Counted from the stretch's first letter, positions 28,108-57,595 are shown. The stretch: 64,000 bases of DNA from Candidatus Poribacteria bacterium (GCA_965242965.1 OZ251518.1:2688001-2752000); one strand, 5' to 3'. Numbers and translations are program-made. Notes: generated by a model from the letters alone, not told the origin.

Positions 28108-28239
28108 TGTTTTCGGACTACGGGCTCGGCGGTTCTGTGGTGCGGAAGCCTGCTGATACCAAAAAGCGCGGACGAGGGAGTGTTCCTCTTCCGCGCTTTT
28201 TTCTCTCCAATTAAAATCCGAGGTGTGCTAGAGTAAATT

Positions 28240-28571
28240 GAGGGGGTTTCATAAATCGCGCAACGTCGCGGGGGAAACCCGCTCGGATGCGCGTGCGGCA
28301 TCCGAGGGGCCCCGTGCTACGGTATCGGGAGGGTTCTTCGTCGAAAAACGGCCCCTTCCTTCCGCGTAGGGCGAGGGCCTGTCCCTCGCCATGCCGCACT
28401 CTACCGGAAACTCGCGGGGGACAGGCCCCCGCGCTACGGTACTATGACATTTTCTTGACGGGTCTCTCCTCCGGTGTTGCATCGAGACCAGGAGGTCTCT
28501 CCTACCGGGGAAACGGAATCGTTCGGGTGTCACGAAACCATTTTGACAACAACGAGTTATGAAACACCCTC
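28240..28571 (-). mobile_element. MITE-like element, 14-bp TIR, 8-bp TSD agtaaatt, REP cargo
   Basis: gagggggtttcata ... tatgaaacaccctc flanked by agtaaatt at 28232-28239 and 28572-28579. Confidence 0.85.
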
Positions 28572-28643
28572 AGTAAATTACGATTTATTTTTTTTACCTC
28601 TATTCTGCCTCTGTCCTGAAGAACAAAGGAGCAGTAGTGATTC

Positions 28644-29741
28644 ATGATTCGTCCAAAACCCAAAGTCACAGTCGTCGGTAGTTTGAACATCGATCTGGTG
28701 AGCCGCGCCCCTCGGTATCCGCAGCAAGGCGAGACGCTCATCGGCGACGCGTTTGATATCTTCACCGGCGGAAAAGGGTTTAATCAGGCCACCGCCGCGG
28801 CGCGATTAGGCGCGGATGTCACGCTTATCGGCTGCGTCGGCACAGATTCTTTCGGGGAGATGCTCCTCTCGGCAATGGCTGCGGAGCAACTCGATGGAAG
28901 GATAAAGCGCGCCGAAGTAGGCACCGGCGTTGCAACCATCGTCGTTGAACCGAACGGCGAAAATAGCATCATCGTCGTGCCGCGCGCAAATATGACGTTG
29001 ACACCTGCAGATATTGAAGAAGCCGCCCCTTGCATCGCCGAGGCGGATGTGTTGCTCCTGCAATTGGAAACCCCGATTGCCGCATCCGAACGCGCCGCTG
29101 AGATTGCGAAGACGAACGGCACTACCGTGCTGCTCAATCCGGCACCGGCGCAACCTCTACCCGACAGTTTCCTCGCACACATTGACATCATCGTTCCCAA
29201 CGAATCCGAGGCGGCGTTGCTGACAGGCATGCCAGTAACGAATGCAGAAGAAGCCGTATCCGCCGCGCGCCGCTTGATGACTACCGACGCGGCGACAACC
29301 GCCCCCGGTCCCGTAGCGCGAGGGCCTGTCCCTCGCGATGCCGCGCTCGCTGCGACAACCTCCCCTGCTGCCGTAGCGCGAGGGCCTGTCCCTCGCGACC
29401 GTTCGGCGCAAACATCCCCCGGTTCCGTAGCGCGAGGGCCTGTCCCTCGCGATGCCAATTTGGCGAATACCGAAATCCCCGCCATCGTGTTAACACTCGG
29501 TGAAAGCGGCGCATTGTTGCTGACAGCAGAAATATCCGAGGTAATTCCCGCTCTCCCAGTTGACGTAGTCGATACAACGGGCGCGGGGGACGCATTCTGT
29601 GGCGCGCTGGCGACTGCGCTGGCCTCTGGTGAGAGTCCGCGAGAAGCCGTCAGGTTTGCGAATGTAGCGGGTGCGGCGGCCGTCACCACCCTCGGCGCGA
29701 CTCCCTCAATGCCGACGCGCGAAGAATTAAAAAAGATTTGA
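28644..29741 (+). CDS. rbsK: ribokinase with in-frame triple REP insertion
   Basis: VGSLNID, GGKGFNQA, LQLE, NPAPA, PNESE, DTTGAGDAF. Confidence 0.92.
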   Translation: MIRPKPKVTVVGSLNIDLVSRAPRYPQQGETLIGDAFDIFTGGKGFNQATAAARLGADVTLIGCVGTDSFGEMLLSAMAAEQLDGRIKRAEVGTGVATIVVEPNGENSIIVVPRANMTLTPADIEEAAPCIAEADVLLLQLETPIAASERAAEIAKTNGTTVLLNPAPAQPLPDSFLAHIDIIVPNESEAALLTGMPVTNAEEAVSAARRLMTTDAATTAPGPVARGPVPRDAALAATTSPAAVARGPVPRDRSAQTSPGSVARGPVPRDANLANTEIPAIVLTLGESGALLLTAEISEVIPALPVDVVDTTGAGDAFCGALATALASGESPREAVRFANVAGAAAVTTLGATPSMPTREELKKI

Positions 29742-29766
29742 CAATGTTTGAAAAATAACGTATAAT
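29738..29766 (+). promoter_or_regulatory. consensus sigma70 promoter TTGACA-17-TATAAT for era
   Basis: Exact consensus; the -35 box overlaps the rbsK stop. Confidence 0.75.
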
Positions 29767-29820
29767 ATATGCAACGCGCAGTATAGCAAAATTAGCAACT
29801 TTTTAAAGACAACATCAACT

Positions 29821-30744: not shown

Positions 30745-30888
30745 GTCCAGAGCGCGAGGTAGGAGAAACCTCCTAGTCTCAATTCCCTCCGGTAGGCGAG
30801 ACCTCCCGGTCTCGATGCAATTCCGTAGCGCGAGGGCCTGTCCCTCGCAACAGCACGTCAAAAAACAACGCATTGCGAGAGACAAAAA

Positions 30889-33800
30889 ATGGAAACACAC
30901 GCCACTATTGATATCCACGGCGCAAGAGAACACAACCTAAAAAACATCAATATCCAACTGCCAAAAGAGAAGTTGATTGTCTTCACCGGCGTAAGCGGTT
31001 CCGGCAAATCGTCGCTCGCTATGGATACCCTATACGCGGAAGGGCAACGCCGCTATATTGAATCGCTATCGGCGTATGCCCGGCAGTTTTTGGGGCAGCT
31101 CCATAAACCAGAGGTTGACGAGATTATCGGGCTGTCGCCTTCCATTGCCATCGACCAGGGTTCAACCGGACACAATCCGCGTTCTACCGTTGCTACTGTC
31201 ACAGAAATATACGATTATCTGCGTGTTTTGTATGCCCGCGCGGGGCAATTTCACTGTCCCGAATGCGGACAGCCTGTCGGTTCACAAAGCGCGAGCGATA
31301 TTCAGAACGCCATCCTCAGCCTTCCGCCGCGCACCCGCATCCTCATCTTAGCACCTATCGTGAGAAGGCGGCGCGGGGAACATCGCCTCGCATTCGCTGA
31401 TGCACTGAAAGCTGGCTTCGTGCGCGCCCGGATTGATGGCGACATCCATGAAATCCGCCCCGAAATGTCCCTCAATCCCAATCAACGCCACGACATTGAC
31501 ATCGTCGTTGATAGGATTATTGTCAAGGCGGGGATTGAAGAACGCGTCGCTGAGGCTGTGGAGCAAGGTCTGAAACTTGGTAACGATAGCCTGATTGTTC
31601 ACATCGTTGGTGCGGAATTGCATCGAGACCGGGAGGACGCGCCTACGGTATTGCATCGAGACCAGGAGGTCTCTCCTACCCGAAGAAATCAAAACCAGGG
31701 AGGCGCGCCTACTGAATTGCATCGAGACCGGGAGGTCTCTCCTACCGGCAGAAATCGAGACCGGGGGGGCTCGCCTACTGCAGATGAAACTGGCGAAGAC
31801 AGGCTTTTCAGCACCGAGTATGTTTGTGGGCAGTGCGAGATCAGCTATGAAATTCCCGAACCGCGCCACTTTTCCTATAACACGCCGGAGGGACAATGCC
31901 AGACGTGCAAAGGATTAGGCTCGCAAAAAGGTATTTCTCCTGCACTGATAGTGACAGACGAAACCCTTTCCATCCCAGAGGGTGCGATTGCGTTGTGGGG
32001 GAAACCGGATATCAAACAGAACGCTGTTATCCAATCATTGGCTCAGCACCTCGGCTTTGATGTAGATGCGCCGTGGAAGGCGCTCGCACCTGAACACCAG
32101 CACGCTATCCTCTACGGCACCGGCGATACCACCATCTCTTTTACACGGCCGCCTATCAGAGGCAATGCGCGCTCGCGCCGATACCTCGGACGGTTTCAAG
32201 GCATCATCCCCGCGCAGGAACAGGTATATCAGGGACTGCCCGAAGAAGATTTGCCCGAATTTTTTGTCAACATGCCGTGCCGCGAATGCAACGGCAGCCG
32301 CCTCACCCCCGCTGTCAACGCTGTCACCCTTAACGGCACGCCTATCACCGAGGTGCTAGCGATGTCCATTGAAGATGCTGCCGCCTTCTTCAACGCGCTT
32401 GAACTCCCACCGCGCGAAGCATTCATCGCCACTGAATTGTTAAAGGAGATTCGCGGGCGGCTCGGATTCCTCCAGCATGTCGGATTAGGCTACCTCACGC
32501 TGGCTCGTTCTGCACCGACACTCTCCGGGGGAGAATCGCAGCGGATACGGCTCGCCAGCCAAGTCGGCGCGGGCCTGCGCGATGTTATCTATGTTCTCGA
32601 TGAACCTAGCATCGGGCTGCACCCCCGAGATCACGCAGGACTCCTATCAACCCTCATTAACCTCCGTAATCAAGGCAACACCGTCATCGTTGTGGAACAC
32701 GATGAAGCCACGATGCGCATCGCCGACTGGATAGTCGATTTTGGACCGGGGGCAGGTGTCAAGGGTGGTGCTATCATCGCTATGGGCACCCCCGAGCAAA
32801 TTAGTGACGAAAGCGATTCACTCACGGCGCAATACCTCCGCGGTGACAAGCAGATAGTGCAGCCCGCATCGCGCCGTCCCGGTAACGAGAAGTGGGTGCA
32901 AATTTGCGGCGCGCGCCAAAATAACCTCAAAGACATTCATCCGAAAATCCCTCTCGGCACGCTCTGCTGCGTCACCGGTGTCAGCGGCTCTGGGAAGAGT
33001 TCCCTCGTCCACGATATCCTCTATAACGCGCTCGCCCGCGATTTGATGCGCGCGAAGACGGTCCCCGGTGCCTACGAGAAAATCCAAGGGTTGGTTCTCA
33101 CAAAAAAGCCGTGGCTAGCGACAGAACCCCTTGCTACGGGAAGCGATGGCATCGTCAAAAAAGAAAAAGCCGTGCCTGTCTCGGAGGTAATCGACAAAAT
33201 TATCCACATTGACATGGCACCCATCGGCCGCACGCCGCGTTCTAACCCTGCTACTTATACGAAGGTGTTCGATGCCATTCGCGCCTTCTATGCCAATTTA
33301 CCGGCATCGAAATTGCGCGGTTACAAACCCGGGCGGTTTAGTTTCAACGTCACCGGTGGTAGGTGTGAAGCGTGCAGCGGCAACGGCGCGAAAAAGGTGG
33401 ACATGGGCCTGCTTTCCGATGTTTGGGTGGCGTGCGAGGTATGTGAGGGACACCGCTACAACAGCGAGACGCTCACCGTGAAATACAAAGACAAAAACAT
33501 CGCCGATGTGCTGGAGATGGATGTTGATGTCGCCCTCGCGCATTTCGCCGATATTCCGAAAATTGCCAGGCCGTTGAAACTGCTACACGATGTCGGGCTT
33601 GACTACATCAAACTGGGACAGCCGGCACCGACGCTCTCCGGTGGCGAAGCACAACGGATTAAACTATCGCGCGAACTCGCCAAACGGAGCACGGGGAAGA
33701 CGCTCTATCTCCTTGATGAACCCACGACAGGGTTGCACGTTGACGATGTCAATAAGTTGCTTTCTATCTTGCACCGCCTCGTTGATGCCGGCAATACCGT

Positions 33801-36800
33801 CGTCGTCGTGGAACACAATCTGGAAGTGATTCAGTCCGCCGATTATCTCATCGACTTGGGGCCGGAAGGCGGCATGCACGGGGGCAACATCGTCGCTGTC
33901 GGCACACCGGAAGAAGTCGCCGAAATACCTGAATCTTACACAGGACAGGCACTCTGCGGCCAATTTCATATCGACAACGTCAGTGACAGCAATGGAAAAA
34001 TAGCCGGCACGCCACAAGAGAACACGGCAGAACGCATTGTGAAAGACAAAAAAATCACCGTGCGCGGTGCAGAAGAAAATAACCTCAAAAACATTGACGT
34101 TGACATTCCGCACGGCAAACTGACGGTGCTGACAGGGGTGAGCGGTTCAGGCAAAACTTCGCTGGCACTGGATACGCTTTACGCCGAGGGACAACGTCGT
34201 TACATTGAGACGCTCAATACTTACGCGCGTCAATTCATCGGGCAAATGGAGAAACCGAAAGTGGCGAAGATTGATGGGTTGTCCCCTGCCATCGCCATTT
34301 CACATACGAGTCCCACGCAGCAGCCACGCTCCACCGTCGCAACGATTACCGAAATCCACGATGGACTCCGGACGCTTTATGCGCGATGGGGGCAGCCGCA
34401 CTGTCCGGATTGTCTTGAACCGGTGCTGCCACAGACTGCCCAAGAAATCGCCGAGATAGTCTTTGCAGCACACCACGGCAAATACGTTGAGGTGCTGGCA
34501 CCGCTCACCAATTATCGGATGTCCGGTCAGAACGTCGGCATGGATATGGATGCCACGCCGGGACTAAAAGGTAATGAGGACTTCCCGCAGGCTTTCCGGC
34601 GATTGCAGAAGGAAGGGTTCGCGCGCGTCCAAATCAACGGCAAAATGCATCGGCTTGATGAGGCACCCCTCCTCCACAAAGGCATCCGGCAGGAGGTGTT
34701 GCTTGTTATTGACAGGCTGGAACTGGTAGCGGAGGAAGAGAGCCGTTTTATGGAGGCAGTGGAACTCGCGCTTTCACAAGGAGAAGGGTTCGTCGCTATC
34801 CAAGAACAACATCGCGATAGGGCCCTACCAGAACAGCATTTTTTCAGTGAGCATGCGGTATGCCCATCCTGTGGGGACAATTTCCCGCAACTCACGCCGC
34901 GCCACTTCTCTTTTAACAACAAACTCGGCGCGTGCGGGTTCTGCGATGGAATCGGTAGACTGCCATTAGGCACAGGCACTGTCGGCGGATACTCGCCGGA
35001 AGTCTGCACACTCTGCGACGGCAGCCGCCTCCAACCGTTCCCCAGCCATGTCAGGTTCTGTGAGAAAACCATCGCGGAAGTGATGAACCTGTCCATTACC
35101 GAGATTATCCAATTCTTTGGAGAGCGCGTGGCCGCGATTGAGACAGAACTCGCCGCCAACCCAGAAAACGTCAAAATTCCAGAGGAAGTTAAGGGCCCCA
35201 CGACTTCAAGGGCGACGCACCCGTCTCTCCATGCCCACACGTCACCCGAATTTGAGGCGGAGGTTCTCCGACACCTTCAGACGCGCCTCCGGTTCCTAGA
35301 AGACATCGGACTCGGCTACCTAGAATTAGCCAGACCGGCTCCGACGCTCTCTGGCGGTGAAATCCGCAGAATTCGACTCGCCAGTCAACTCGGCAGCGGA
35401 CTCACCGGTGTTACCTATATCCTCGATGAACCGAGCATCGGGTTGCATCCCCGCGACCAGGAGAAACTCATCACGGCGATGAAGGCGTTGCGCGATATCG
35501 GTAATAGCGTGCTTGTTGTCGAGCACGATAAAGACACGATTTTAGCGGCAGACCATCTCGTGGACTTCGGTCCGCGCGCAGGCGAACATGGCGGTGAAAT
35601 TGTCGCCACAGGCGAACCGGATGTATTCACTTCCAATGGAAACGTCTTGAATGCCCGGCCCTCGCTCCAAGGCAAGGGGGAGAACGGAAACCGTTCGCTG
35701 ACGCAAGCCTATCTCTCCAATGCGCTGCAGATTCCGGTGCCGAAAAAGCGTCGGAAAGGCATCGGCAAATCGCTCACGCTCACCGGCGTGCAGACGAACA
35801 ACCTGAAGGACATTGATGTCAGGTTTCCGCTCGGCACGCTTATCGCCGTGACAGGCGTTTCAGGGTGTGGAAAGAGTTCGCTTATTGATGGCACCCTGCG
35901 GCCCGCCCTTGAAAGCCGCCGTACTGTCCAGACTGGGGAGGAAGAAGGCGAATTCGATTACGAACGCTATCGACAGATGGTGCAAGAGAAACAGCAGCAA
36001 GGGCAGCCTATCTATCGGAAGATCCGTGGCATCACGGACGTGAAACGGCTTATCAACGTAGATCAGAAACCCATTGGCGAAACACCGCGCTCCAATCTGG
36101 CAACATATACAGAGTTGTTCACGAAGATTCGTGCTGTCTTCGCCGAGCAACCCGCTGCGCGACATCTCGGCTTTGGCATGGCACGGTTCAGTTTCAACCT
36201 CAACTACGGACAGTGCGAGCAGTGTGGCGGCCATCGGTTCAACCGCGTGGAGATGCATTTCCTGCCTGATGTTTGGATGCCGTGTGAGGCGTGCGGTAGC
36301 ACCGGCTACAATGCCGACACGCTTTCTGTCCGATACAAAGGCAAAAACATCGCCGAGGTGTTGCAATTGACGGTGGCAGAGGCACTTGAACTCTTCAGCG
36401 ATGTGAACACCGTTGGTAACAACATCCGGCACGTGTTGGAAGTGCTTACGGCGGTAGGGTTGGACTATCTCTCCTTGGGACAACCTGCGACGACGCTCTC
36501 CGGCGGCGAGGCACAGCGTATCAAACTCGCGAAGGAGCTGGCACGCCGGCACGTCGGTTCCACCCTTTACCTCATGGACGAACCCACCACCGGGTTGCAC
36601 GTTGACGATGTTCAGAAGTTGCTGAAAGTGTTGAACCAACTCGTCGATGCTGGCAATACGATTATCGCTGTCGAACACAATCTGGACGTGATTAAATCGG
36701 CAGATTGGGTTATCGATTTAGGCCCGGAGGGAAGCAAAGACGGCGGCGAGATTGTCGCTACTGGCACACCGGAGAAAATTGCCGAAATTTGGACATCGCA

Positions 36801-36834
36801 TACAGGCCGGTTTTTACGGGAGGTGCTGTCGTGA
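30889..36834 (+). CDS. uvrA: double-length excinuclease ABC subunit A (two fused UvrA units)
   Basis: Four GVSG(S/C)GK Walker A motifs, four LSGGE signatures, repeated AEGQRRY and zinc fingers. Confidence 0.95.
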   Translation: METHATIDIHGAREHNLKNINIQLPKEKLIVFTGVSGSGKSSLAMDTLYAEGQRRYIESLSAYARQFLGQLHKPEVDEIIGLSPSIAIDQGSTGHNPRSTVATVTEIYDYLRVLYARAGQFHCPECGQPVGSQSASDIQNAILSLPPRTRILILAPIVRRRRGEHRLAFADALKAGFVRARIDGDIHEIRPEMSLNPNQRHDIDIVVDRIIVKAGIEERVAEAVEQGLKLGNDSLIVHIVGAELHRDREDAPTVLHRDQEVSPTRRNQNQGGAPTELHRDREVSPTGRNRDRGGSPTADETGEDRLFSTEYVCGQCEISYEIPEPRHFSYNTPEGQCQTCKGLGSQKGISPALIVTDETLSIPEGAIALWGKPDIKQNAVIQSLAQHLGFDVDAPWKALAPEHQHAILYGTGDTTISFTRPPIRGNARSRRYLGRFQGIIPAQEQVYQGLPEEDLPEFFVNMPCRECNGSRLTPAVNAVTLNGTPITEVLAMSIEDAAAFFNALELPPREAFIATELLKEIRGRLGFLQHVGLGYLTLARSAPTLSGGESQRIRLASQVGAGLRDVIYVLDEPSIGLHPRDHAGLLSTLINLRNQGNTVIVVEHDEATMRIADWIVDFGPGAGVKGGAIIAMGTPEQISDESDSLTAQYLRGDKQIVQPASRRPGNEKWVQICGARQNNLKDIHPKIPLGTLCCVTGVSGSGKSSLVHDILYNALARDLMRAKTVPGAYEKIQGLVLTKKPWLATEPLATGSDGIVKKEKAVPVSEVIDKIIHIDMAPIGRTPRSNPATYTKVFDAIRAFYANLPASKLRGYKPGRFSFNVTGGRCEACSGNGAKKVDMGLLSDVWVACEVCEGHRYNSETLTVKYKDKNIADVLEMDVDVALAHFADIPKIARPLKLLHDVGLDYIKLGQPAPTLSGGEAQRIKLSRELAKRSTGKTLYLLDEPTTGLHVDDVNKLLSILHRLVDAGNTVVVVEHNLEVIQSADYLIDLGPEGGMHGGNIVAVGTPEEVAEIPESYTGQALCGQFHIDNVSDSNGKIAGTPQENTAERIVKDKKITVRGAEENNLKNIDVDIPHGKLTVLTGVSGSGKTSLALDTLYAEGQRRYIETLNTYARQFIGQMEKPKVAKIDGLSPAIAISHTSPTQQPRSTVATITEIHDGLRTLYARWGQPHCPDCLEPVLPQTAQEIAEIVFAAHHGKYVEVLAPLTNYRMSGQNVGMDMDATPGLKGNEDFPQAFRRLQKEGFARVQINGKMHRLDEAPLLHKGIRQEVLLVIDRLELVAEEESRFMEAVELALSQGEGFVAIQEQHRDRALPEQHFFSEHAVCPSCGDNFPQLTPRHFSFNNKLGACGFCDGIGRLPLGTGTVGGYSPEVCTLCDGSRLQPFPSHVRFCEKTIAEVMNLSITEIIQFFGERVAAIETELAANPENVKIPEEVKGPTTSRATHPSLHAHTSPEFEAEVLRHLQTRLRFLEDIGLGYLELARPAPTLSGGEIRRIRLASQLGSGLTGVTYILDEPSIGLHPRDQEKLITAMKALRDIGNSVLVVEHDKDTILAADHLVDFGPRAGEHGGEIVATGEPDVFTSNGNVLNARPSLQGKGENGNRSLTQAYLSNALQIPVPKKRRKGIGKSLTLTGVQTNNLKDIDVRFPLGTLIAVTGVSGCGKSSLIDGTLRPALESRRTVQTGEEEGEFDYERYRQMVQEKQQQGQPIYRKIRGITDVKRLINVDQKPIGETPRSNLATYTELFTKIRAVFAEQPAARHLGFGMARFSFNLNYGQCEQCGGHRFNRVEMHFLPDVWMPCEACGSTGYNADTLSVRYKGKNIAEVLQLTVAEALELFSDVNTVGNNIRHVLEVLTAVGLDYLSLGQPATTLSGGEAQRIKLAKELARRHVGSTLYLMDEPTTGLHVDDVQKLLKVLNQLVDAGNTIIAVEHNLDVIKSADWVIDLGPEGSKDGGEIVATGTPEKIAEIWTSHTGRFLREVLS

Positions 36835-37727
36835 GCGCGCCCGACTACTACGCCTGCTTAAAGCTTGATAGAGACGCAACGGCGGCGGACATCAAAAAGG
36901 CGTTCCGTAACCTCGCGAAACGCTACCATCCAGATAAAAATCCGGAACCAGCCGCCGCGAGAAGGTTTCGCCGCATCTGGCGCGCCTATAACGTCCTCCG
37001 AGACGCAAAGCAGAAACGTGCTTATGACAAGACGCTCCGCGCAGCAGAAAGCACCGTTGCAAACCACGCCTACGGGGCACGCAAGCACCCGCACACTGCA
37101 GAGACGGTAGACAGGCTGTTTCAAGCACTGCTCCAGCATCGCTACGAGACAGGGATTGCACTCTATGAACAATTGCTGCAGCGATTTGAGAGAAATGGCG
37201 AGAAAAAAGGCGGAGGTGTAACCCTTGACGCGGTGTTGAGTTATGAGGAGAGCCGCGACTGCGAATTCCTCGTCGCCGAAGCTTACGAGAAAATTGCGTT
37301 TCAGAAAACCTGCGCGCAGGTTGCCGCGAATTACAGACAACAAGCCATCGTGCTGTATGAGTCCTTGCTCGCCGCTGAAGCGCAACGTCCCTGCTTCCGG
37401 CACTTCACCCGTGAAGTGAAGGAACGGCTGAAAATGTTATATCTTGCCTACTATAAAGATTGCACTGCTAAAATCACAGCGAGGGACGGGAAACCCTCAC
37501 CCTACGAGGAATGTGAGACTAAAGGGGTTTTATTGGGAAAAGTCCAGGCACTACACCTGCCGAAACGCGAAACGGCGTGGATTTACAAAAAAATCGCAGA
37601 ATTTTATGTTGAAATCGAACGGTACCCCGAAGCACGCGAGGTTTTGCAATTGGCGTTTGAACTGCATCCCCGACTCGCCGGTGCCAAAAAGATTTGTGAA
37701 ACGTTGAATATCGTTCAGCCAAAATAA
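36831..37727 (+). CDS. DnaJ-domain protein with C-terminal TPR-like region
   Basis: DYY..L..IKKAFR..YHPDKN; GTGA overlap with uvrA stop. Confidence 0.85.
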   Translation: MSAPDYYACLKLDRDATAADIKKAFRNLAKRYHPDKNPEPAAARRFRRIWRAYNVLRDAKQKRAYDKTLRAAESTVANHAYGARKHPHTAETVDRLFQALLQHRYETGIALYEQLLQRFERNGEKKGGGVTLDAVLSYEESRDCEFLVAEAYEKIAFQKTCAQVAANYRQQAIVLYESLLAAEAQRPCFRHFTREVKERLKMLYLAYYKDCTAKITARDGKPSPYEECETKGVLLGKVQALHLPKRETAWIYKKIAEFYVEIERYPEAREVLQLAFELHPRLAGAKKICETLNIVQPK

Positions 37728-37729
37728 GT

Positions 37730-37998
37730 GAGGGTGTTTCATAACTCCGTTTCGGTAGTTATCCCCCCTTGGGGACAGGCGAATATCAGAAGCCATCGGG
37801 CCCACCTCTGTAGTTCGGGAGCGCCCGCTCCCGAACGGGTCAGGATCAGGCGATCCTGACCTACAGGGGGGAGATACGGTCTGACAGCAAAACGCATGGC
37901 GAGGGACAGGCCCTCGCCCTACGTGAAAGGGATGCGTTTTTTTCACCGTATCGCGGGGGTTTGTCCCCGCGACGTTGAACGATATATGAAACACCCTC
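37730..37998 (+). mobile_element. MITE-like element, 14-bp TIR, 8-bp TSD aaataagt, REP cargo
   Basis: gagggtgtttcata ... tatgaaacaccctc; aaataagt at 37722-37729 and 37999-38006. Confidence 0.88.
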
Positions 37999-38095
37999 AA
38001 ATAAGTAGGCTGAAGCAAATACCGTATCTTCTGTCCGGTAGGCGCGGTGCCTATTGAGGGGATTTCCCCGCGTCTGTCTAATGCGGAGCATTTTG

Positions 38096-38971: not shown

Positions 38972-39724
38972 ATGATGCAAGACAAAACACGCTCTCTCGC
39001 AGAGACATACCAACAAGACGGATTTTTAACCGGCATCCCCATCGCCGATGCCACGGAAGCGGCGCGCTATCAAACCGCTTACAACGCACTCGAAGCGGAA
39101 GTCGGCGCGGAGAAATGCGAAATCGGACTCGTGGATTGGCATTTTGAACATCAATTTATCTGGGACATCGCAACGCACCCGAAGATTGTCGATGTCATTG
39201 AGGCACTCATCGGGCCTGATGTAATGTTGCTTGCCACCCACTTCTTCTGCAAGTATGGGCCTCGCGAGAAGTTCGTGGCGTGGCATCAAGACGTTACCTA
39301 CTGGGGATTAGAGCCGCCAGAAGCCGTCACGGCATGGTATGCGGTTGACGACAGCGATACCGGCAACGGATGCATGCAGGTGATTCCCGGCAGTCACCGG
39401 CACGGTATCCAAGCGCACGGCACGTCTGAACGCGCCGGGAACCTGCTCAGCATCAATCAGGAAGTGCCGGTGACAGAGGACGCGGCGGCATCAGCAGCAG
39501 ACCTGGTGCTGAAAGCCGGTGAGATGTCTATCCACCACGGGGCACTCATTCACGGCAGTCTTCCGAATCACTCCACTCGGCGGCGATGCGGACTGACGGT
39601 TCGTTATATCCCACCCACCGTGCGGCAGGCAGAAGAGAATTCGTTGAAACGGCCTTGGAAACCCATCCTCCTCCGGGGCGAAGACCGGCATCACCATTTC
39701 ACCACGGTGCCAGAACCGTTTTAA
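38972..39724 (+). CDS. phytanoyl-CoA dioxygenase (PhyH) family Fe/2OG oxygenase
   Basis: WHQD, NGCMQVIPGSH, HGSLPN..RR. Confidence 0.9.
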   Translation: MMQDKTRSLAETYQQDGFLTGIPIADATEAARYQTAYNALEAEVGAEKCEIGLVDWHFEHQFIWDIATHPKIVDVIEALIGPDVMLLATHFFCKYGPREKFVAWHQDVTYWGLEPPEAVTAWYAVDDSDTGNGCMQVIPGSHRHGIQAHGTSERAGNLLSINQEVPVTEDAAASAADLVLKAGEMSIHHGALIHGSLPNHSTRRRCGLTVRYIPPTVRQAEENSLKRPWKPILLRGEDRHHHFTTVPEPF

Positions 39725-39726
39725 AT

Positions 39727-40630
39727 GCGGGTATTTCATAAATCGCTCACCGTCGCGGTGCCAGGCCCTTGCCCTGCGGTGCAGGCAGCAACCGTCCGCT
39801 TTCACCGTAGGGCGAGGGCCCTCGCATGCCACACGCGCATGCGAGAGGGTTTCCCTCGCCATGCCTAGGTCTATCAAACCGCTCTTTTAGGTCCGTAGGA
39901 CCTTAATGTCTATAGCTCCTCGCGCGGCGAAGACTCTTAAGGTCTGTAGGACCTTAATGTGCGCCGCACCGCGCGGCTAGTATGCTATTAAGGACCTAAA
40001 GGACCTTGAAAAGGGTGGCAGGCACGTTTTTCTATAGACATGCAGGACCTAACGGACCTGAAGAGCCGTTTTTTCAAAAGAGATTTCACCGCCGCGCGGG
40101 AGAGAATCCTGCAAATCCTAGAATCTTGTGAATCCTGATTCAGACACCTAGAGGCATCGCGGGGGACAGGCCCCCGCGCTACCGGAACCGCGACATTTTC
40201 TTCACAAAACGGCCCCTTTCACCGTAGGGCGAGGGCCTGTCCCTCGCCATGCTCCGGTCTATCAAAAAAACTCTTTTAGGTCCGTAGGACCTGAATGTCT
40301 ATAGAAAAACGCGCCGCACCCTAGCAAGGTCCGTCGGACCTTAATATTGCATCGAGACCGGGAGGGCTCTCCTACGGGGCAATCGCGGGGGACAGGCCCC
40401 CGCGCTACGGGAACGGGACATTTTCTTCACAGAACGGCCCCTTTCACCGTAGGGCGAGGGCCTGTCTCTCGTCGTGCTGCGGTCCATCAAACACCTCTTT
40501 TAGGTCCGTCGGACCTGAATGTCTATAGAAAAACGTGCCGCACCCTAGCAAGGTCCGTCGGACCTGAATGTTGCATCGAGACCGGGAGGGCTCTCCTACG
40601 GGACGCTCGCGGGGGACAGGCCCCCGCGCG
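39727..40630. repeat. composite repeat region: degenerate MITE end, GTAG-REPs, AGGTCC-GTAG-GACCT hairpin family
   Basis: gcgggtatttcataaatcgctc end, aggtccgtaggacct units, internal duplication (about 40156-40350 vs 40380-40570). Confidence 0.85.
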
Positions 40631-40713
40631 ACATTACCGTGATATTTTCTCTACATTCACCGAAACTTATGATATAATAATTACCAGAAAATTTGGAAAT
40701 GGAGGGACATATC

Positions 40714-40953
40714 ATGAAAGAAAAATTCGTTGGGAAGTGTTATCTCCCCGGTTTCGATCCGGCGACTTACACCGATCCGGTGCTTGAAGAATGTTATCGA
40801 ATGAAACGGGAGTTCAACGCGCAGTTCAAGACATTCGAGGAACGCCACGCGTATCTAGTAGCACAAGAAATAGAAAATCGGAAGAAGGGGCACAACTATG
40901 CGCCGATTCCGCCGCATTTGGAGCGGTATCCTCATCAGGAGGACGTAGACTAA
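40714..40953 (+). CDS. small hypothetical protein (DPVLEECYRMK type)
   Basis: GGAGG RBS and upstream TATAAT; 79 aa. Confidence 0.6.
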   Translation: MKEKFVGKCYLPGFDPATYTDPVLEECYRMKREFNAQFKTFEERHAYLVAQEIENRKKGHNYAPIPPHLERYPHQEDVD

Positions 40954-40963
40954 CCGTGAGGGC

Positions 40964-41250
40964 TCGCGGGGGACAGGCCCCCGCGCTACGGTGAAAAAAA
41001 CGCCGCCCCTTTACGTAGGGCGAGGGCCTGTCCCTCGCCATGCCTCGGTCTATCGAACGATCGCGGGGGACAGGCCCCCGCGCTACGGGAACCGGACGGT
41101 GTTTCATAACTCTGTAGTTCGGGAGCGCCTGCTCCCGAACGGGTCAGGATCAGGCGATCCTGACCTACAGCGGTGAGGCGGTCTGACTCTCCTACGGCGC
41201 GCCATCAAACGTTCGCGGGGGAATCGAGACCAGGAGGTCTTTCCTACGGA
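40964..41250. repeat. GTAG-REP cluster including double-hairpin element 41114-41168
   Basis: Same palindromes as elsewhere in the window. Confidence 0.85.
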
Positions 41251-41304
41251 GACATCACTCGCATCAAGACTTGACCCCGTCGACGACGGCTTACGGAGAG
41301 AAAC

Positions 41305-43642: not shown

Positions 43643-43823
43643 TTCGGGAGCGCCCGCTCCCGAACAGGTCAAGATCAGGCGATCTTGACCTACAGGGGTG
43701 AGACGGTCTGACACCAAAACGCATGGCGAGGGACAGGCCCTCGCCCTACGTGAAGGGGAAGCGTTTTTTATCGTATCGCGGGGGCCTGTCCCTGCGACGT
43801 TGAACTATTTATGAAACCCCCTC
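43540..43823 (+). mobile_element. MITE-like element (close copy of 37730-37998) without matching TSD
   Basis: gagggtgtttcataactccgtttcggtag ... tatgaaaccccctc; flanks ctagtgac vs aatttatt. Confidence 0.8.
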
Positions 43824-45352: not shown

Positions 45353-45379
45353 GTCTTTCCTTAAAATCATATTTTAATT

Positions 45380-46320
45380 GAGGGTGTTTCATATCTTGAA
45401 GTCTTCCCAGTAGGAGAGACCTCGGGGCTCGATTTCCTGTAGGAGAGACCTCCCGGTCTCGATGTTCCCGCAGCGCGGGGGACAGGCCCCGCGAGCGTTG
45501 ATTTGCTGTCATAGTCTGGGGATCTACGGTAACGGGACGATTTCTTCACGTTCGCGGGGGACAGGCCCCGCGCTACGGGAACGGGACGGTTTCTTGGCAG
45601 CAGAACGGCCCCCTTTCACCGTAGGGCGAGGGCCTGTCCCTCTCCATGCTGCGGTTCATCAAACCGCTCTTTTAGGTCCGTAGGACCTTAATGTCTATAG
45701 CTCCTCGCGCAGCGAAACCTCTTAAGGTCTGTAGGACCTTAATGTGCGCCGCACCACGTGACTTGCATGCTATTAAGGTCCTAACGGACCTTGAAAACGG
45801 GCCGACACGTGTGGCTATAGACATGCAGGACCTAAAGGACCTGAAGAGACGTTTTTTTCAAAAGAGATTTCGCCGCTGCAAGGGAGAGCATCTTGTGAAT
45901 CCTGAGTCAGACAACTAACGGAGATCGAGAGATCGCGAGGGACAGGCCCTCGCGCTACGGTAATCGGGGCATGGTTTGCTGCACGCGAGGGACAGGCCCT
46001 CGCGCTCCCCCTCTGTAGTTTGCGATCGCCTGATCGCGATCAGGTCAAGAGCAGGCGCTCTTGACCTACAGACAGCGATGCTCAATTACCGTAGGGCGGG
46101 GGCCTGTCCCCCGCCGTGCCCGGGATGCGATGAAAGTTCGCGAGGGACAGGCCCTCGCGCTACGGGAATCGGGACGTGGTTTGCTGCACGCGCGGGACAG
46201 GCCCCCGCGCGCTCCCTCTGTAGTTTGCGATCGCCTGATCGCAATCGGGTCAAGAGCAGGCTCTTGACCTACAAACTACGGTAATCGAGCGATCGCGAGG
46301 GACAGGCCCTCGCGCTACGG
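45380..46320. repeat. ~1-kb composite repeat cluster beginning with a MITE TIR
   Basis: gagggtgtttcata at 45380, several REP families, copy of the 39881-40146 hairpin element at 45666-45913. Confidence 0.85.
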
Positions 46321-46391
46321 TGACAAGGACCGTTTTTTTGCAACCAAAACCTTGACAAAAACGTTAAAAAACATTAAAATCACATTTTAAT

Positions 46392-46420
46392 TTGACAAAC
46401 GCGCGAAAATGTGGTATAAT
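46392..46420 (+). promoter_or_regulatory. consensus sigma70 promoter TTGACA-17-TATAAT with extended -10
   Basis: Exact consensus 570 nt upstream of the 46990 gene. Confidence 0.7.
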
Positions 46421-51322: not shown

Positions 51323-51330
51323 TCTGCAAT

Positions 51331-53262
51331 TTAAATCCAACTATACACCGCCGAACGCAACACCAAACTCAACAGCGGCCAAAAACAGCCCATCAACGCT
51401 TCCCCAAGCACCAATCCGATGAAAAACGGCACCGCACGCCGATACGCGTTCACACCGCCGTGCCGGAGGATAACCCATTTCGCCACCATCGCCAAGAAAA
51501 GCGGAAACCAGATTACGTCTGTCGTCCCCGGCGCAACACCGATGACATACCCTGCCGGATGCAACGGACACCACACGAAACGCGAACGGAGAAACATGAT
51601 ACCCAAATTCGCCGCAAAGGCGAGGCATAAAACCGAGGTCGCCAGCCAATCTGTCGGTTTCGGACTCACCAGCCACGATGAGAGGAAGTTGTAGGTATCC
51701 GCACCACCGGCGTGAATTTGTTCGGAACCAGCGGCGACTCCTTCTCGATAAATCGCATACGGATAGAGGATCAGACTAGACAAAATCCCGACGAGACTCG
51801 CAATTATTAGCACGATGAACATCGTGCGGTTGCGAATGCCGGTGCGTTCAGCAAGTTTGAACGCCTCCAGCTGGTCTGGCATAGGATGCGTTCTGAAGGA
51901 GGCATAACTCGCGCCGCTCAGCCAATTCAGCAGCGAGAGCATCGTGAGGTTGCCCGGTTTCAGTCGCCGCGTGCCAAGCAGCGAAATCATCATATATTGC
52001 GGTGTCAAATAGCCGATGGCGTGTATCGGCGGGCCCAGTTCTGCACGCATGCGCGTTAATCCGACAACAATCATCAGGTAAATCGCAATGAAAATCGCGA
52101 ATGCCCACACCGACATCCCACCACGGACACAGAATATCGCCAGCAAAAGCAGCGAGACACCGAGCGTTATCACCGCACTGCGATGCGAGAGTGCTTCGGT
52201 TTTCGTGGTTTCGCGATTCGGGCGGAATACCTGCGAAAATACGGATGCAAAATGCTTGCGCGCGTGCCAGCAAGCGATAGCCAGAAGCGCAAGCAATGCA
52301 CCGGCTCCTTGTTCGCCGAAAAACGGATAGCCCGGCAACGCCGCTATACCCGCCATGCTCCCGAAGAGCAGTTGTCCCTTTTTCATGAAGTAGAAGAAGG
52401 TGCAGGAAAACGCCAGATCCAGCGGTAAAATGAACGAAAACCCGATGAGATATGGGTGAAAACGGAGCGGTGTGCTACCCATCGCGCTCCACGGCTTCTG
52501 CGTGAAGTAAATGTTCAGATTATACTTTCTGACAGGAATTTCTGGCAGCACGGGAAAAAAGAACTGCAATCCGTTGAGCAGATTGATGCCGGCGGCTATC
52601 CCGAATCCAATCCACAGCAGACGGTTGTTAAAAATACTACGGCCTGTCGTTATCTCCAGCGGAATTTGGATAATCGGGTATGCCAGTTTTTCGTTCTCGA
52701 TCCACTGCTTGCGGAGAAGCGAAGTGAGACATAAGAAAATCAGCATCAACAGGAAGACCACGGCAGACCAGGACAGAATCGGCACAATCCAATATTGCAC
52801 GTATCCTTCCGTAAAAAAGTTCACCTCGCCTTCATAGAAATCGTGGACAACTCTCGGTTCTTTCACCACCAGCCATTCGGGGAGGTGATGGAACAGTAGT
52901 GCTTCCCAGTCATTTTCCGGCGTAGCGAAGCGGAAGGCGTAAGGGATAAGCCCCATCAAGCGCGGGATGCAGTCGTGTCCCGAAAACGCGCTGCCGACAG
53001 CGAGCATGGCGTATACAACGAGCAAATCTCGCTGTTGCATCGCAGCGCGTGGAAAGATGCGCTGCACGCCGAGGTTCAGCACCGTAATCATCAAAATACC
53101 GAACATGACGTTGACGGACATCGCCACCGTGGTCAGGTGTGCAGTGTGCCAAATCATTTCGACGTAGGCAATCCAGTAACTATTCGCAATGATGAGGACT
53201 GCGCCGATGAACACCGCGCGTTTCGCAATGGCGTGTCCTGTCTGTTTTTTTGTTGTTCGCAT
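51331..53262 (-). CDS. multi-pass membrane protein (DUF6785/DUF6784-like), paralog of 15719-17626
   Basis: RKQWIENEKLAYPIIQIP, RMRAELG, CPLHPAG, YRRAVPFFIGL. Confidence 0.75.
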   Translation of the reverse strand: MRTTKKQTGHAIAKRAVFIGAVLIIANSYWIAYVEMIWHTAHLTTVAMSVNVMFGILMITVLNLGVQRIFPRAAMQQRDLLVVYAMLAVGSAFSGHDCIPRLMGLIPYAFRFATPENDWEALLFHHLPEWLVVKEPRVVHDFYEGEVNFFTEGYVQYWIVPILSWSAVVFLLMLIFLCLTSLLRKQWIENEKLAYPIIQIPLEITTGRSIFNNRLLWIGFGIAAGINLLNGLQFFFPVLPEIPVRKYNLNIYFTQKPWSAMGSTPLRFHPYLIGFSFILPLDLAFSCTFFYFMKKGQLLFGSMAGIAALPGYPFFGEQGAGALLALLAIACWHARKHFASVFSQVFRPNRETTKTEALSHRSAVITLGVSLLLLAIFCVRGGMSVWAFAIFIAIYLMIVVGLTRMRAELGPPIHAIGYLTPQYMMISLLGTRRLKPGNLTMLSLLNWLSGASYASFRTHPMPDQLEAFKLAERTGIRNRTMFIVLIIASLVGILSSLILYPYAIYREGVAAGSEQIHAGGADTYNFLSSWLVSPKPTDWLATSVLCLAFAANLGIMFLRSRFVWCPLHPAGYVIGVAPGTTDVIWFPLFLAMVAKWVILRHGGVNAYRRAVPFFIGLVLGEALMGCFWPLLSLVLRSAVYSWI

Positions 53263-54736: not shown

Positions 54737-54772
54737 GCGGCACGGGGGACATTCTTCTCCTCCTTTTGAGCG

Positions 54773-54804: not shown

Positions 54805-54830
54805 GCCAGAGCAGGGAACAGAGATGCATC

Positions 54831-55037
54831 ATGCAAAACAAAAACTTGCGACAGCAGGCGGTAACGCTAGTCGAACAACTTCCCGATGAGAAACTCAAAA
54901 CCGCTGTTGATTATCTCACTTCCCTTGAGGAGGAAGTTTTGCAAGACAGCGAGGCTCCTCAGAAAGGGCTTGGAACAGCAATCCATGAGATGTTCAAACC
55001 GTTCGGTGGGGTGGAATTGGAGATACCGCCACGGTAG
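54831..55037 (+). CDS. small orphan antitoxin-like protein
   Basis: LVEQLPDEKL N-terminus and GLGTAIHEMFKPFGGVELEIPPR tail. Confidence 0.5.
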   Translation: MQNKNLRQQAVTLVEQLPDEKLKTAVDYLTSLEEEVLQDSEAPQKGLGTAIHEMFKPFGGVELEIPPR

Positions 55038-55063
55038 TCAATGCGCGGGCAAGGAGAGAGGCT

Positions 55064-55696
55064 ATGAAAACCGTAATGAAAAGGGCTTTTGACCCTTCCA
55101 CTGAGCAAGCCTACGAAATAAAATTTCCGGCACCCGAAGAAGTCAAAAAAGCCATCCTTGAATTGGAATTTCCGCATGAGGGAATAACGGTTGGGGAAGC
55201 CGCCATTACGTTGGCTGATATCTTTCAATTGTCGGGCGAGCAGCGAGAAGCGAAGAACCGCGTGGGATACAAAACGTTCCGTTACGATATCGTCATGCCT
55301 GCTTTTAAGGAGTTGTCGGATGAAAGGAGGTTAGAGCAACCCAAGGGACCGCATACCCCCTATGTCCGCACCGAAATTGAGCCGTTCACGCCGAATCCGG
55401 ACCCGCAGGTATCTGTTTCTATTGAAGAAATTTACCAACGGCTCCGCAAGGAGTTGACAGGGGACTTGATACAAATCATCAGGGAGTGCTTAGCCCCCTA
55501 CGAGAAACGCTTCGACAAAATCGATGCGCGCTTTGACAAAATTGATGCGCGATTTGAGCAACTCCACGAGGACATCCTGAAACTCGCCTTAACTGTTGAA
55601 AGGTTAAGCACCGAGGTTGAGTGGATGAAGCGGATAGTGCTTGGGATTGGCGGGGGTATCCTCCTCTATATCATCAAGATGATTTTCTTCCCGTAG
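55064..55696 (+). CDS. Mrr-N-like winged helix + coiled-coil + C-terminal TM protein
   Basis: LADIFQLSGEQR..FRYDI, IEEIYQRLRKEL, FDKIDAR repeats, hydrophobic tail. Confidence 0.55.
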   Translation: MKTVMKRAFDPSTEQAYEIKFPAPEEVKKAILELEFPHEGITVGEAAITLADIFQLSGEQREAKNRVGYKTFRYDIVMPAFKELSDERRLEQPKGPHTPYVRTEIEPFTPNPDPQVSVSIEEIYQRLRKELTGDLIQIIRECLAPYEKRFDKIDARFDKIDARFEQLHEDILKLALTVERLSTEVEWMKRIVLGIGGGILLYIIKMIFFP

Positions 55697-56167
55697 ATGC
55701 AAGCCGCGAGCACGACTATCGTGCGTTAAAACGAATACGGTTGGCGCGCGGACAAAGCGCGCTCACCAACAATCAGGAGACTGATTCGGTTTAGAAAGCA
55801 TATTTCAGCAAACCATCACATTTTAACTCTCTGTGCGGAGTTGCTCTTCGTGCGGTTAATCGCGATGGCGTGGACCGTCAATATCCCAGATCTGGTTTTC
55901 CTTGCTGTCCTCAAAACAGCACTCGATAAGGCATAGGAGCCCTTCACATCGGTATTGAGACGAACAGCGGCTGCGAACAAACGAATGCTATTACCGCGGA
56001 GGAAATGGCATCCTTGACGAGTCTGAATGGCAATGATTTCAGAGAGATCAGTTATCCCCTTACGTAGTTTGAGATCGCCCGATCTCAAACAAATGTTAAT
56101 GAGGAAATAGGTATCTTGTGCAATGTAGGTTCACAACCTATGTTCTACTAGAGAAGGAGACTACTGA

Positions 56168-57328
56168 GTGCACAACAAAACTGTCAACCTTGACAACCCT
56201 GAAAATGGCGAGGCCTACTATATCAGAGGATTCGGCCACTACGAAGCTGGCGATTATGATAAAGCTATCGCGGACTTTGACGAGGCACTCCGGATTGACA
56301 CCGAGAATGCTGAAGCCTACAAACTCAGAGCATCTGCCTACGCGGCTAAAGGGGACCACGATAAGGCTATCAAGGACTTCACCAAGGCCATTAGCATTGA
56401 TCCCAACGATGCCACAACCTATAATCGGAGAGGGTACAGCTACTCACACAGAGGCTATTATGACGGGTCTATCAAAGACTACAATAGGGGACTTCAGATC
56501 ACCCCTAACGATGCCGCCATCTATAACAATAGGGGATTCGCTTATGCTGCGAAAGGCGAATCCGACAAAGCCATCGCCGATTATAGCAAGGCTATCGCTT
56601 TTCTGCCTAACTATGCCACTGCCTATATTAATCGGGCGTATGTCCACTCGCGCAAAGGCGATTATGAGCTGGCTATTGAAGACTGCACCAAGGCTCTCAG
56701 CATCAAGCCCGACTATGCGACTGCCTATACTAGAAGAGGATGGGCATACGCTTTTAAAGGCGAATCTGACAAAGCTATCGTAGACTTCAACAAGGCTATC
56801 AACTGCGATCCCAACTTCGCCACAACTTACGATGGCATGGGGTATGCCTATGCAGCCAAGGGCGATTATGATAGTGCCCTCAGGAACTACAACAAGGCTA
56901 TCAGTCTCAAGCCTAACCACGCTCCCCTCTACCTCAGCAGAGGCGATTTATATTGCGATATGGGTAAACGCGCGAGGGCCATTGAAGACTACGATAACGC
57001 CGTCAGACTCTGTCCTAACTATCAGACAGACTTCGTTAACCACAAAATGCACAAGTTCATTAAAGGCCAGGATGCGGTTAACGGGGCTATTAACCTATTG
57101 GCCAGCGTAATTGGCATTCCACCGGGTAAAAGCCTTGCTGATTTTTTGATCAATCTGATTGACAATCGAGATAAAAATCCTGCAGCCTTCTACTATGCGG
57201 GCGTGCACGCACTATTCCAGAACGATGGGGTTTCGGCTGCGAGATGTTTCAAGTTAGCTTTGAGTTTTGGATACGAAGACTCAGCTAAGATTGAGCAACA
57301 TCTTGAAAATCTCGCGAATCGGACATAG
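56168..57328 (+). CDS. tetratricopeptide repeat protein
   Basis: Repeated A.Y.NRG..Y..KG..DKAI.D..KAI...P units; GGAG RBS. Confidence 0.9.
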   Translation: MHNKTVNLDNPENGEAYYIRGFGHYEAGDYDKAIADFDEALRIDTENAEAYKLRASAYAAKGDHDKAIKDFTKAISIDPNDATTYNRRGYSYSHRGYYDGSIKDYNRGLQITPNDAAIYNNRGFAYAAKGESDKAIADYSKAIAFLPNYATAYINRAYVHSRKGDYELAIEDCTKALSIKPDYATAYTRRGWAYAFKGESDKAIVDFNKAINCDPNFATTYDGMGYAYAAKGDYDSALRNYNKAISLKPNHAPLYLSRGDLYCDMGKRARAIEDYDNAVRLCPNYQTDFVNHKMHKFIKGQDAVNGAINLLASVIGIPPGKSLADFLINLIDNRDKNPAAFYYAGVHALFQNDGVSAARCFKLALSFGYEDSAKIEQHLENLANRT

Positions 57329-57446
57329 CAGACTGAGCCGCCTTTGGCCTGCCTACTATGCACCACAATACCTGCTGCGGAAGAACCTGCCCTAGGATTC
57401 GGGGCAGGTTTCAATAGCAGCCTACGGTTTTTTAGAGGATTTTAGG

Positions 57447-57587
57447 GAGGGTGTTTCATATATCAATGCCTTTCCTGATAGGAGAGCCCTCCCGATCTCG
57501 ATTTCTGCCCCTACCGGCAATTCTCCATTTTTTCACCGTATCGCGGGGGCTTTCACCGCGACGTTGAGCGATTTATGAAACACCCTC
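57447..57587 (+). mobile_element. short MITE-like element, near-perfect 8-bp TSD
   Basis: gagggtgtttcata ... tatgaaacaccctc; attttagg (57439-57446) vs attttagt (57588-57595). Confidence 0.8.
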
Positions 57588-57595
57588 ATTTTAGT

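Follow-up and report, generated by a model that had tools for sequence, protein, structure and literature searches.

Probable miniature inverted-repeat transposable elements with REP-rich interiors in Candidatus Poribacteria

Mobile insertion cassettes (MICs) are elements in which ends like those of an insertion sequence (IS) surround passenger genes. Bacterial MITEs, or miniature inverted-repeat transposable elements, such as Correia/NEMIS, RUP, Nezha and MITEAba12 combine short terminal inverted repeats (TIRs) with a target site duplication (TSD), carry no coding sequence, lie in many copies in spacers or at gene ends and fold into long stems (PMC3184786, PMC3733652), and a MITE of Porphyromonas gingivalis contains an internal minisatellite (PMC4596501). 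Two further groups of repeats are relevant here, namely the GTAG-led repetitive extragenic palindromes (REPs) with their REP doublets (REPINs), bacterial interspersed mosaic elements (BIMEs) and REP-associated tyrosine transposases (RAYTs) (PMC2817692, PMC3733652), and the TIR repeats of TIRtrons (Di Nocera et al. 2013, PMC3733652). We analyzed a stretch of 64,000 nucleotides of Candidatus Poribacteria bacterium (GCA_965242965.1, OZ251518.1:2688001-2752000), hereafter called the window, in which a 14-bp TIR, GAGGGTGTTTCATA, delimits short units filled with GTAG REPs. These units probably constitute a MITE family, that is, non-autonomous transposons moved by staggered-cut transposition.

The family resembles the bacterial MITEs listed above in its short TIRs, TSDs, absence of coding sequence, presence both in spacers and at the ends of genes, and long-stem folding, but it has no known cognate IS, its core is a variable string of GTAG REPs, its copies measure 141-863 bp and a REP is built into one of its end types. 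Variable passenger DNA within IS-like ends is a trait shared with the P. gingivalis element and with MICs, the passenger DNA consisting here of REP hairpins of several classes. As in REPINs and BIMEs, the GTAG hairpins occur singly, in inverted pairs and in clusters, and they are also found within genes, as was described for O. terrae and other organisms (PMC2817692, PMC3733652). The present units differ from those systems in having a TIR that is not a REP together with 8-bp duplications, features not made by HUH transposition (PMC2817692); no RAYT gene was seen in the 84 kb of DNA covered, which comprise the window and a 20-kb locus of another Poribacteria genome, L001.

The search for GAGGGTGTTTCATA with up to two mismatches, controlled with 100 shuffled sequences, returned 11 matches in the window against 0.25 expected, a number that none of the 100 shuffles reached. 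All 11 ends fall between 28240 and 57587, the region 1-28 kb being without any end; inverted copies delimit four complete units, to which three solo ends on the plus strand must be added (39727 with two mismatches, 41095 with one and 45380 with none). When the window ends were aligned with the five ends of L001, positions 1-14 turned out to be near-invariant and positions 15-19 looser and AWATCG-like, with a GA tip in 15 of the 16 sequences; the search form of the family end is GAGGGKGTTTCATA. Further inside, a degenerate subterminal pattern of 30 nt, GAGGGNGTTTCATANATNGNNCAACGTCGC, matches exactly at four window ends (none expected) and is present as a decayed copy at 39727. The original prediction, made from the window alone, had described a non-autonomous TIR element with 8-bp TSDs, four complete copies, solo ends and a shared subterminal motif. 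The ends, their flanks and the lack of coding capacity support that description; the four copies lie where they had been placed, with the flanks described for them (including the missing TSD at 43540), the motif is real, and the solo ends are confirmed, the one given as 'about 41098' starting at 41095.

Of these four copies, the element of 332 bp (28240-28571) is flanked by AGTAAATT/AGTAAATT at 28232-28239 and 28572-28579, identical at 8/8 positions, and that of 269 bp (37730-37998, or 37722..38006 with its TSDs) by AAATAAGT/AAATAAGT, also 8/8. The minimal element of 141 bp (57447-57587, or 57439..57595 with TSDs) has ATTTTAGG/ATTTTAGT, alike at 7/8 positions. The element of 284 bp (43540-43823), of the same subfamily as 37730, has no TSD, its flanks agreeing at 1/8 positions, although the one on the right, AATTTATT, is of the kind expected from the target consensus given below. 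The six complete pairs of ends (four in the window, two in L001) were then compared with the 30 combinations of left and right flanks that are not partners. Partner flanks agreed at 8/8 in three of the six pairs and at 7/8 in one, whereas non-partner flanks never reached 8/8 and showed 7/8 in 2 of 30 cases (Fisher p = 0.003), the latter because insertion sites resemble one another.

This resemblance is evident in the outward flanks of 15 ends (the internal end 41095 being excluded), which when oriented show A in 10/15 cases at each of positions -8, -4 and -3, T in 13/15 at both -6 and -1, and T in 10/15 at -5, giving the palindromic AT-rich target consensus ANTTAANT. Partner flanks agree also at the positions that this consensus leaves free, and are therefore direct duplications rather than an extension of the TIR; an inverted repeat reaching into the flanks was considered and rejected, direct identity being 8/8 and inverted identity 4-6/8. 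Stop codons (TAA, TAG or TGA) lie on or next to the ends at 37730, 39727 and 57447 in the window, bearing out the earlier remark that copies sit beside them, and at 9768 and 16739 in L001. The left TSD of 37730 includes the TAA stop of the open reading frame (ORF) 36705-37727, the end at 39727 begins 2 nt past the stop of ORF 38972-39724, and the TSD of 57447 lies directly against the stop codon of ORF 57596-59467; such positions are frequented because AT-rich targets are found mostly at stop codons and in spacers in a genome with 53% G+C.

Empty sites in relatives, which the original prediction had proposed to look for, were sought in the C-terminal tails of orthologous proteins, and both filled and empty states were found at 57447 and at 43540. 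Element 57447 is inserted in the last codons of a gene for a NERD/UvrD-type helicase (57596-59467, minus strand). The window helicase ends with ..REALYV* just before the duplication, and translation of the DNA past the element gives LKSSKKP*, with which orthologues of 631 aa terminate (P0170, ..REALYHILKSSKKP). The 90% cluster of this helicase has nine members, three of which, with 631 aa, end with ..REALY[DH]IL[KQ][PS]SKKP and one, with 628 aa, with ..REALYRILKRV; the other five, that of the window included, stop at ..REALYV at the insertion. In the long forms the frame continues through the site, where (C)CTAAAAT is present once; in the others eight codons have been clipped, and the single target copy predicted at the empty site is CCTAAAAT. 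Of the PADLOC profiles, that of a NERD helicase associated with DRT (E = 2.5e-32) and that of Nhi (E = 1.6e-14) match the clipped helicase.

At 43540 the left tip directly follows codon 320 in ORF 42581-43642, the native last 18 codons of which are gone; homology to the nearest relatives halts exactly at the tip (after ..THFCSLVT), and the residues beyond it are coded by the element. We compared 16 orthologues, P0002 and 15 from the cluster of 24, and 12 of them retain the native tail [AS]GIL[NS]EAM[HP]E[KR][QR]EARIAP, alignable also with homologues farther away. P0002 has the tail ..ELIHRPARAVNR, equivalent to the right flank of the window in frame (FIHRPARAVNR), and therefore represents an empty site with TTAATT uninterrupted. 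The tail ..ELIEGVS* of P0155 and P0156 corresponds to TTAATT followed by GAGGGTGTTTCATAA in frame, a reading found also at window 45374 and L001 6966; these two proteins thus mark filled sites at which the left junction is intact. It is only in the protein of the window (P0152, identical) that the tip is fused to codon 320. The original target at 43540 was thus probably AATTAATT, and the window copy probably lost later its left duplication and the last 18 codons of the gene by a deletion ending at the tip. This deletion and the rearrangement of P0155 and P0156 have a common left breakpoint after ..SLVT. A simple frameshift as the origin of the P0155 tail was tentatively set aside, a by-eye judgement of the protein only. 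The filled/empty polymorphism among close relatives indicates that the family moved recently.

Three types of end can be distinguished in the family. The A-type (6 of the 16 ends) continues with ..CAACGTCGCGGGG-loop-CCCCGCGATAC, a type-1 REP hairpin with its GTAG/GTAT tag on the inner side and a folding energy of -12.8 kcal/mol. This hairpin stands at a constant distance, about 10 nt inside the conserved end, in all six cases including the decayed end 39727, and its loop harbours a nested 30-bp palindrome in two of them (window 28240 and L001 10030). The B-type (GAGGGTGTTTCATAACTC..) is found at four ends; the C-type, also with four ends, has ATCGATGC after the end, then about 7 nt and the type-2 REP GTAGGAGAGACCTCCCGGTCTCGAT. 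Two L001 ends fall outside the A, B and C types. The interior is assembled from type-1 REPs (of the form GTAG-NGCGRGGG-CCTGT-CCCYCGCN), type-2 REPs and an inverted REP pair (GTAGTTCGGGAGC..GCTCCCGAAC / GGTCAGGATC..GATCCTGACCTAC), and large units also hold a module about 180 bp long that has AGGTCC inverted repeats. The latter is a repeat with inverted ends of its own (..TTTTAGGTCCnnnGGACCTTAATGTCTATAG .... CTATAGACAT..AGGTCC..) and without Rfam match, which occurs both in large TIR units and outside them: copies lie at 39886-40064 and 45671-45845 in the window, with halves at 40275-40346 and 40500-40570, and at 4943-5116, 7130-7301 and 7465-7639 in L001.

Element 28240-28571 has on its left the A-type end with the nested palindrome in its REP, then type-1 REPs at 28366 and 28413, a type-2 REP at 28484 and a B-type end on the right, while element 57447-57587 pairs a C-type end, the type-2 REP of which is decayed, with one of the A-type. 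The latter copy folds with its ends paired (-25.1 kcal/mol, z = -4.6). In element 37730-37998 the modules follow the order B-type end, small hairpin, inverted REP pair (37810, 37839), type-1 REP (37898) and A-type end. One and the same module order is common to window 37730, window 43540 and L001 9768, which occupy unrelated loci (DnaJ/creatininase, hypothetical/DUF4403 and jag/mnmE, respectively) and differ from one another by insertions or deletions of whole modules as well as by compensatory changes in the stems. In at least this one subfamily, the REP cargo is carried along with the ends.

The solo ends belong to larger structures. An intergenic mosaic of 1.57 kb (39727..41300, plus strand) begins with the decayed A-type end at 39727-39740, which has two mismatches, and contains eight perfect GTAG REPs and AGGTCC modules; it encloses a small ORF (about 40715-40954), and its internal B-type end (41095-41108) belongs to a truncated copy of the 37730 type reaching to about 41186. 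The unit 45380-46373 (994 bp; 45361..46392 with its flanking repeats, plus strand) has a perfect C-type left end and no right end, and comprises one AGGTCC module besides 10 perfect GTAG REPs. On either side of it stands a copy of a 19-bp direct repeat, TTAAAATCAYATTTTAATT (45361-45379 and 46374-46392, 18/19 identical), which occurs only at those two sites within the window. Directly after the right copy of this repeat, a consensus-like promoter (TTGACA, 17 nt, TATAAT) can be read by eye at 46392-46420. Partners for the solo ends, when up to four edits were allowed, were weak candidates only, such as TATCAAACCGCTCT at 39872; the background amounts to 227 such matches per window, so they were discounted.

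With respect to the REPs themselves, we counted perfect GTAG-led hairpins with a stem of at least 6, using 20 shuffles and 11 control tetranucleotides for comparison. The window contains 63 of these hairpins against 0-6 in the shuffles and 0-10 for each control tetranucleotide, and their stem variants are compensatory (GCGGGGG/CCCCCGC, GCGAGGG/CCCTCGC, GCGCGGG/CCCGCGC). Nine lie within the four complete elements, where GTAG-led palindromes had indeed been predicted, and 18 in the mosaics with solo ends (eight in 39727-41300 and ten in 45380-46373). The remaining 36 belong to clusters without any TIR end, among them all the clusters of the 1-28 kb region, arrays within ORFs and a tandem array with six units of 48 bp; most of the spread of REPs therefore takes place without the element. 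The same module families are found within and outside the elements. A simpler view would thus seem adequate to these sequences, that of a MITE residing in a REP-saturated genome, the interior of which gains and loses REPs as other intergenic DNA does there.

REPs also occur in tandem arrays and within genes of the window. The array at 17745-18066 has six 48-bp units, each with a type-1 REP and a conserved spacer. Five 33-bp type-2 REP units lie in frame at 31622-31786, within a double UvrA-like ORF of 1981 aa (30889-36834), between the matches to UvrA_inter (aa 133-239) and UvrA_DNA-bind (aa 351-448). GTAG REPs are documented in PVC-type bacteria, and REPs in uvrA genes of other phyla and in other repair genes, in PMC3733652. 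Three type-1 REPs with a spacing of 54-60 bp are situated at 29290-29461 in an ORF for a PfkB-family kinase (28644-29741), the Pfam match of which is split in two, the best part reaching to aa 211; the arrangement suggests that REPs were inserted in frame.

Beyond the window, the scan of species-representative genomes, which used the 30-nt A-end pattern only and a collection that does not contain the window's own four matches, gave one locus, L001, in the metagenome-assembled genome Candidatus Poribacteria bacterium AGPOR5 (PYJE01000102.1). L001 has five ends against 0.07 expected: those of a unit of 863 bp (6972-7834) with the TSD AGTTAATT (8/8), many REPs and two AGGTCC modules, those of a unit of 263 bp (9768-10030) between jag and mnmE, and a solo end at 16739 which provides the stop codon of a methylase gene. 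Common to the two stretches are their REP families and a single gene pair of DUF4258 type (537 bp); they show no synteny, hence the comparison offers no empty site at the DNA level. The shared two-gene unit, with the toxin-like DUF4258 protein encoded by its first ORF, lies at 15173-15700 in the window and 17306-17841 in L001 (80% nucleotide identity), and adjoins in both a gene for a DUF6785/DUF6784 membrane protein, of which the window has two (15719-17626 and 51331-53262). L001 also contains adjacent PdxJ ORFs (2648-3172 and 3450-4178), the first of which is partial (profile positions 2-152 of 234).

Additional traces of the family come from public protein sets. A spurious ORF across element 37730 was used as probe (E <= 0.001), together with peptide patterns for the ends derived from translations of the window. 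The probe matched 24 proteins among 32 candidates, all 24 holding the peptide of the inverted REP pair. The outward end-coded peptide MKHP was present in seven of the 24 and the inward RVFH in six, one of which was discounted (P0137). Both were found in P0124, P0127 and P0131, which differ in their numbers of type-1 and type-2 REP peptides. Moreover, three ORFs of the window are letter-for-letter identical to proteins of a single contig, on which three of the probe-matched proteins also lie. Further copies with other cargo therefore exist in public data, as read from translated repeats. No long protein with element-coded segments was detected at E <= 0.001 among 25 candidates, and a blastn search of plasmids with element 37730-37998 produced one meaningless match of 22 nt (E = 0.8). 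In the literature on Poribacteria we found no description of this family or of any MITE or REP system, most subscription journals lying outside the coverage of this search.

How these repeats came to be where they are can be explained in several ways. That no transposition is involved at all, the motif being a linker within a recombining BIME-like mosaic and the likeness of the flanks a product of their AT-rich context, is hardly credible. Flanks are indeed alike across elements, up to 7/8 in 2 of the 30 non-partner combinations, and solo and internal ends exist alongside flanking repeats of 15 and 19 bp, but partner flanks are identical at variable positions (8/8 in 3/6 versus 0/30) and two sites are filled or empty in close relatives, with the reading frame continuing exactly across the element. 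Very improbable is also the action of a tyrosine HUH enzyme, either RAYT or TIRYT, on ends that would delimit REPIN- or BIME-like doublets. The genome is saturated with GTAG REPs, the A-type end is a REP with a conserved tail, reminiscent of the 'degenerated GTAG-1 units adjoined to unrelated stem-loops' of PMC3733652, which border some RAYT genes and number in the hundreds, and the moderately abundant TIR families described there are tied to TIRYT genes, some of these TIR repeats of TIRtrons combining a degenerate GTAG REP with unrelated sequence. The TIRtron repeats, however, flank genes for tyrosine transposases and in many cases share GGGGWSAS, and no TSD is reported for them; the present family has TSDs, lacks GGGGWSAS in its end and shows no such gene in the DNA covered. 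Its 8-bp direct duplications and palindromic target are difficult to reconcile with enzymes of the IS200/IS605 type, which according to PMC2817692 have neither TIRs nor larger target duplications, and the terms 'target site' and 'duplication' appear nowhere in PMC3733652.

The original prediction went beyond the element itself to propose a vehicle, mobilised by a DDE transposase, that captures, disperses and reshuffles REPs, thereby coupling DDE transposition with HUH (RAYT) processing. This proposal survives in part, in that cargo is carried by one subfamily; reshuffling by the element and the DDE/HUH coupling do not follow from our data, and we regard such a dedicated carrier as decidedly unlikely. 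In its favour, REP cargo has moved between loci in the subfamily of 37730, 43540 and L001 9768, cargo differs by whole modules among copies, each of the A-type ends (6/6) has its REP hairpin alongside, and the 863-bp unit of L001 with the AGTTAATT duplication is loaded with REPs and two AGGTCC modules. Yet the majority of hairpins (36/63) sit in TIR-free clusters and only nine in complete elements, the 1-28 kb region has REP clusters and no TIR, module families are alike inside and outside, no RAYT is seen in the 84 kb, and the differences among copies are not tied to capture by the ends rather than to REP invasion or recombination. A related proposal, to which we give slightly less credit still, is that the A-type end has recruited its REP as a working part and that a 'pack-MITE' moves any REP cluster enclosed by two inverted 14-bp ends as one block and thereby founds new clusters at AT-rich stop-codon sites, where a RAYT remodels them, the 15- and 19-bp repeats being footprints of a second, non-canonical integration route.

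As to the enzyme, a transposase of the IS6 type (IS26-like), producing replicative cointegrates and often TSD-less copies next to deletions, is a possibility that we consider unlikely though worth stating. The 14-bp end and 8-bp TSD are as in IS26, and the IS26 end from pEC958 is identical in register at 8/14 positions (1, 6-9, 11, 12 and 14), with TGTT at 6-9 and CA.A at 11-14; the binomial p of 0.01 applies to one pre-chosen comparison, and this one was actually chosen after the fact. For IS6, PMC7986276 gives two conserved motifs (cTGTt and caaa), repeats of 8 bp and two known MITEs, one of 227 and one of 336 bp, and the deletion at 43540 ends exactly at the tip. However, the GG tip conserved in IS6 is replaced by GA in 15 of the 16 present ends, no description of a palindromic AT-rich target was found for IS6, IS26 was picked post hoc among many IS families and was the sole family compared, no IS6-type gene is seen in 84 kb, and the simple TSD insertions that form the majority are harder to obtain by a purely cointegrate route. 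Given the post hoc comparison and the missing GG tip, the family is not filed under IS6.

The IS256 family is characterized by duplications of 8-9 bp and by ends starting with Ga/g. The GAG tip and 8-bp TSD are in keeping with these traits, and the IS256/Mutator-like transposase that the original prediction drew from the two features is a candidate, no autonomous copy being found in the DNA covered. IS6-like and IS256-like transposases are both leads for the enzyme, and the present family can be assigned to neither.

We thus return to the MITE family as the probable explanation. Its copies have TIRs (a 14-bp core that is looser to about 19 bp), TSDs in 4/6 pairs, no transposase gene and filled as well as empty sites; their size is small in the window (141-332 bp), the 863-bp copy of L001 exceeding what is usual for MITEs. 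A transposase supplied in trans would bind both ends and link them to DNA that it cuts with a stagger of 8 bp at preferred ANTTAANT sites, repair of which would yield the 8-bp duplication; the gene for this transposase may reside elsewhere in the chromosome or may already have been lost. The interior would be passenger DNA, assembled from the GTAG REP modules that also occupy the other spacers of the genome, and its turnover, including the palindrome nested in the REP loop and the extra type-1 and type-2 REPs, would be due to REP activity and REP recombination rather than to the MITE transposase. Copies without TSD would represent secondary rearrangements. No Pfam family was found for any ORF inside an element, and Rfam gave no family in the window or L001 (nor was any tRNA found in the window).

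Several observations weigh against this explanation. The DNA covered, 84 kb, is a small sample, and Pfam detects no transposase or HUH domain in the 88 ORFs of the window (42 main and 46 further ones), just as had been anticipated for the window, or in the 19 of L001. Solo ends account for 3/11 of those in the window, and 2/6 complete pairs are without 8-bp TSD, namely 43540 and L001 9768-10030, the latter having perfect ends and flanks that are alike at 13/15 positions with no 8-bp duplication. The bracketing repeat of the 45380 unit (18/19), together with its missing right end, is not accounted for by an 8-bp stagger. The state of the insertion sites was read from protein tails rather than from the DNA of relatives, and at 57447 the gene-side flank (TATGTATAG joined to ACTAAAAT) departs from what the empty-site orthologues predict. 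In addition, the REP of the A-type end could be a functional part of that end instead of passenger DNA, and the DDE type of the enzyme is something that we infer from two features, TIR and TSD. The oddities at L001 9768, the 45380 unit, the breakpoint shared by 43540 and P0155/P0156 and the flank of 57447 may reflect secondary rearrangement, selection on neighbouring genes or a second integration route.

Other genes of the window are related to defence. A PARIS-like pair (24259-26243) consists of an ATPase (AAA_15/AAA_21) similar to PADLOC AriA (E = 4e-25) and a DUF4435 protein similar to AriB (E = 8e-12). A Type ISP / IIG restriction-modification fusion occupies 11772-14915 (Type_ISP_C, E = 9e-100); upstream of it, the stretch 8662-11732 contains ORFs without assigned family as well as about 852 bp duplicated in tandem (9543-10973, 90-96% identity).

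The element is of an ordinary kind, and its REP-rich filling is for the most part like the genome around it. For what is probably an uncultured lineage of sponge symbionts, it provides a defined and recently active element with a target rule, ANTTAANT, that can serve as a strain-level marker. It also accounts for C-terminal truncation in at least two genes, those for the NERD/UvrD defence-type helicase and for a conserved hypothetical protein, and it calls for caution in annotation, at least 24 spurious or hybrid ORFs through these repeats being present in public protein sets. With TIR ends lying close to REP hairpins, this genome is suited to asking whether REP clusters move as passengers; if the 'pack-MITE' proposal were true, two unrelated chemistries of transposition would feed each other in one genome.

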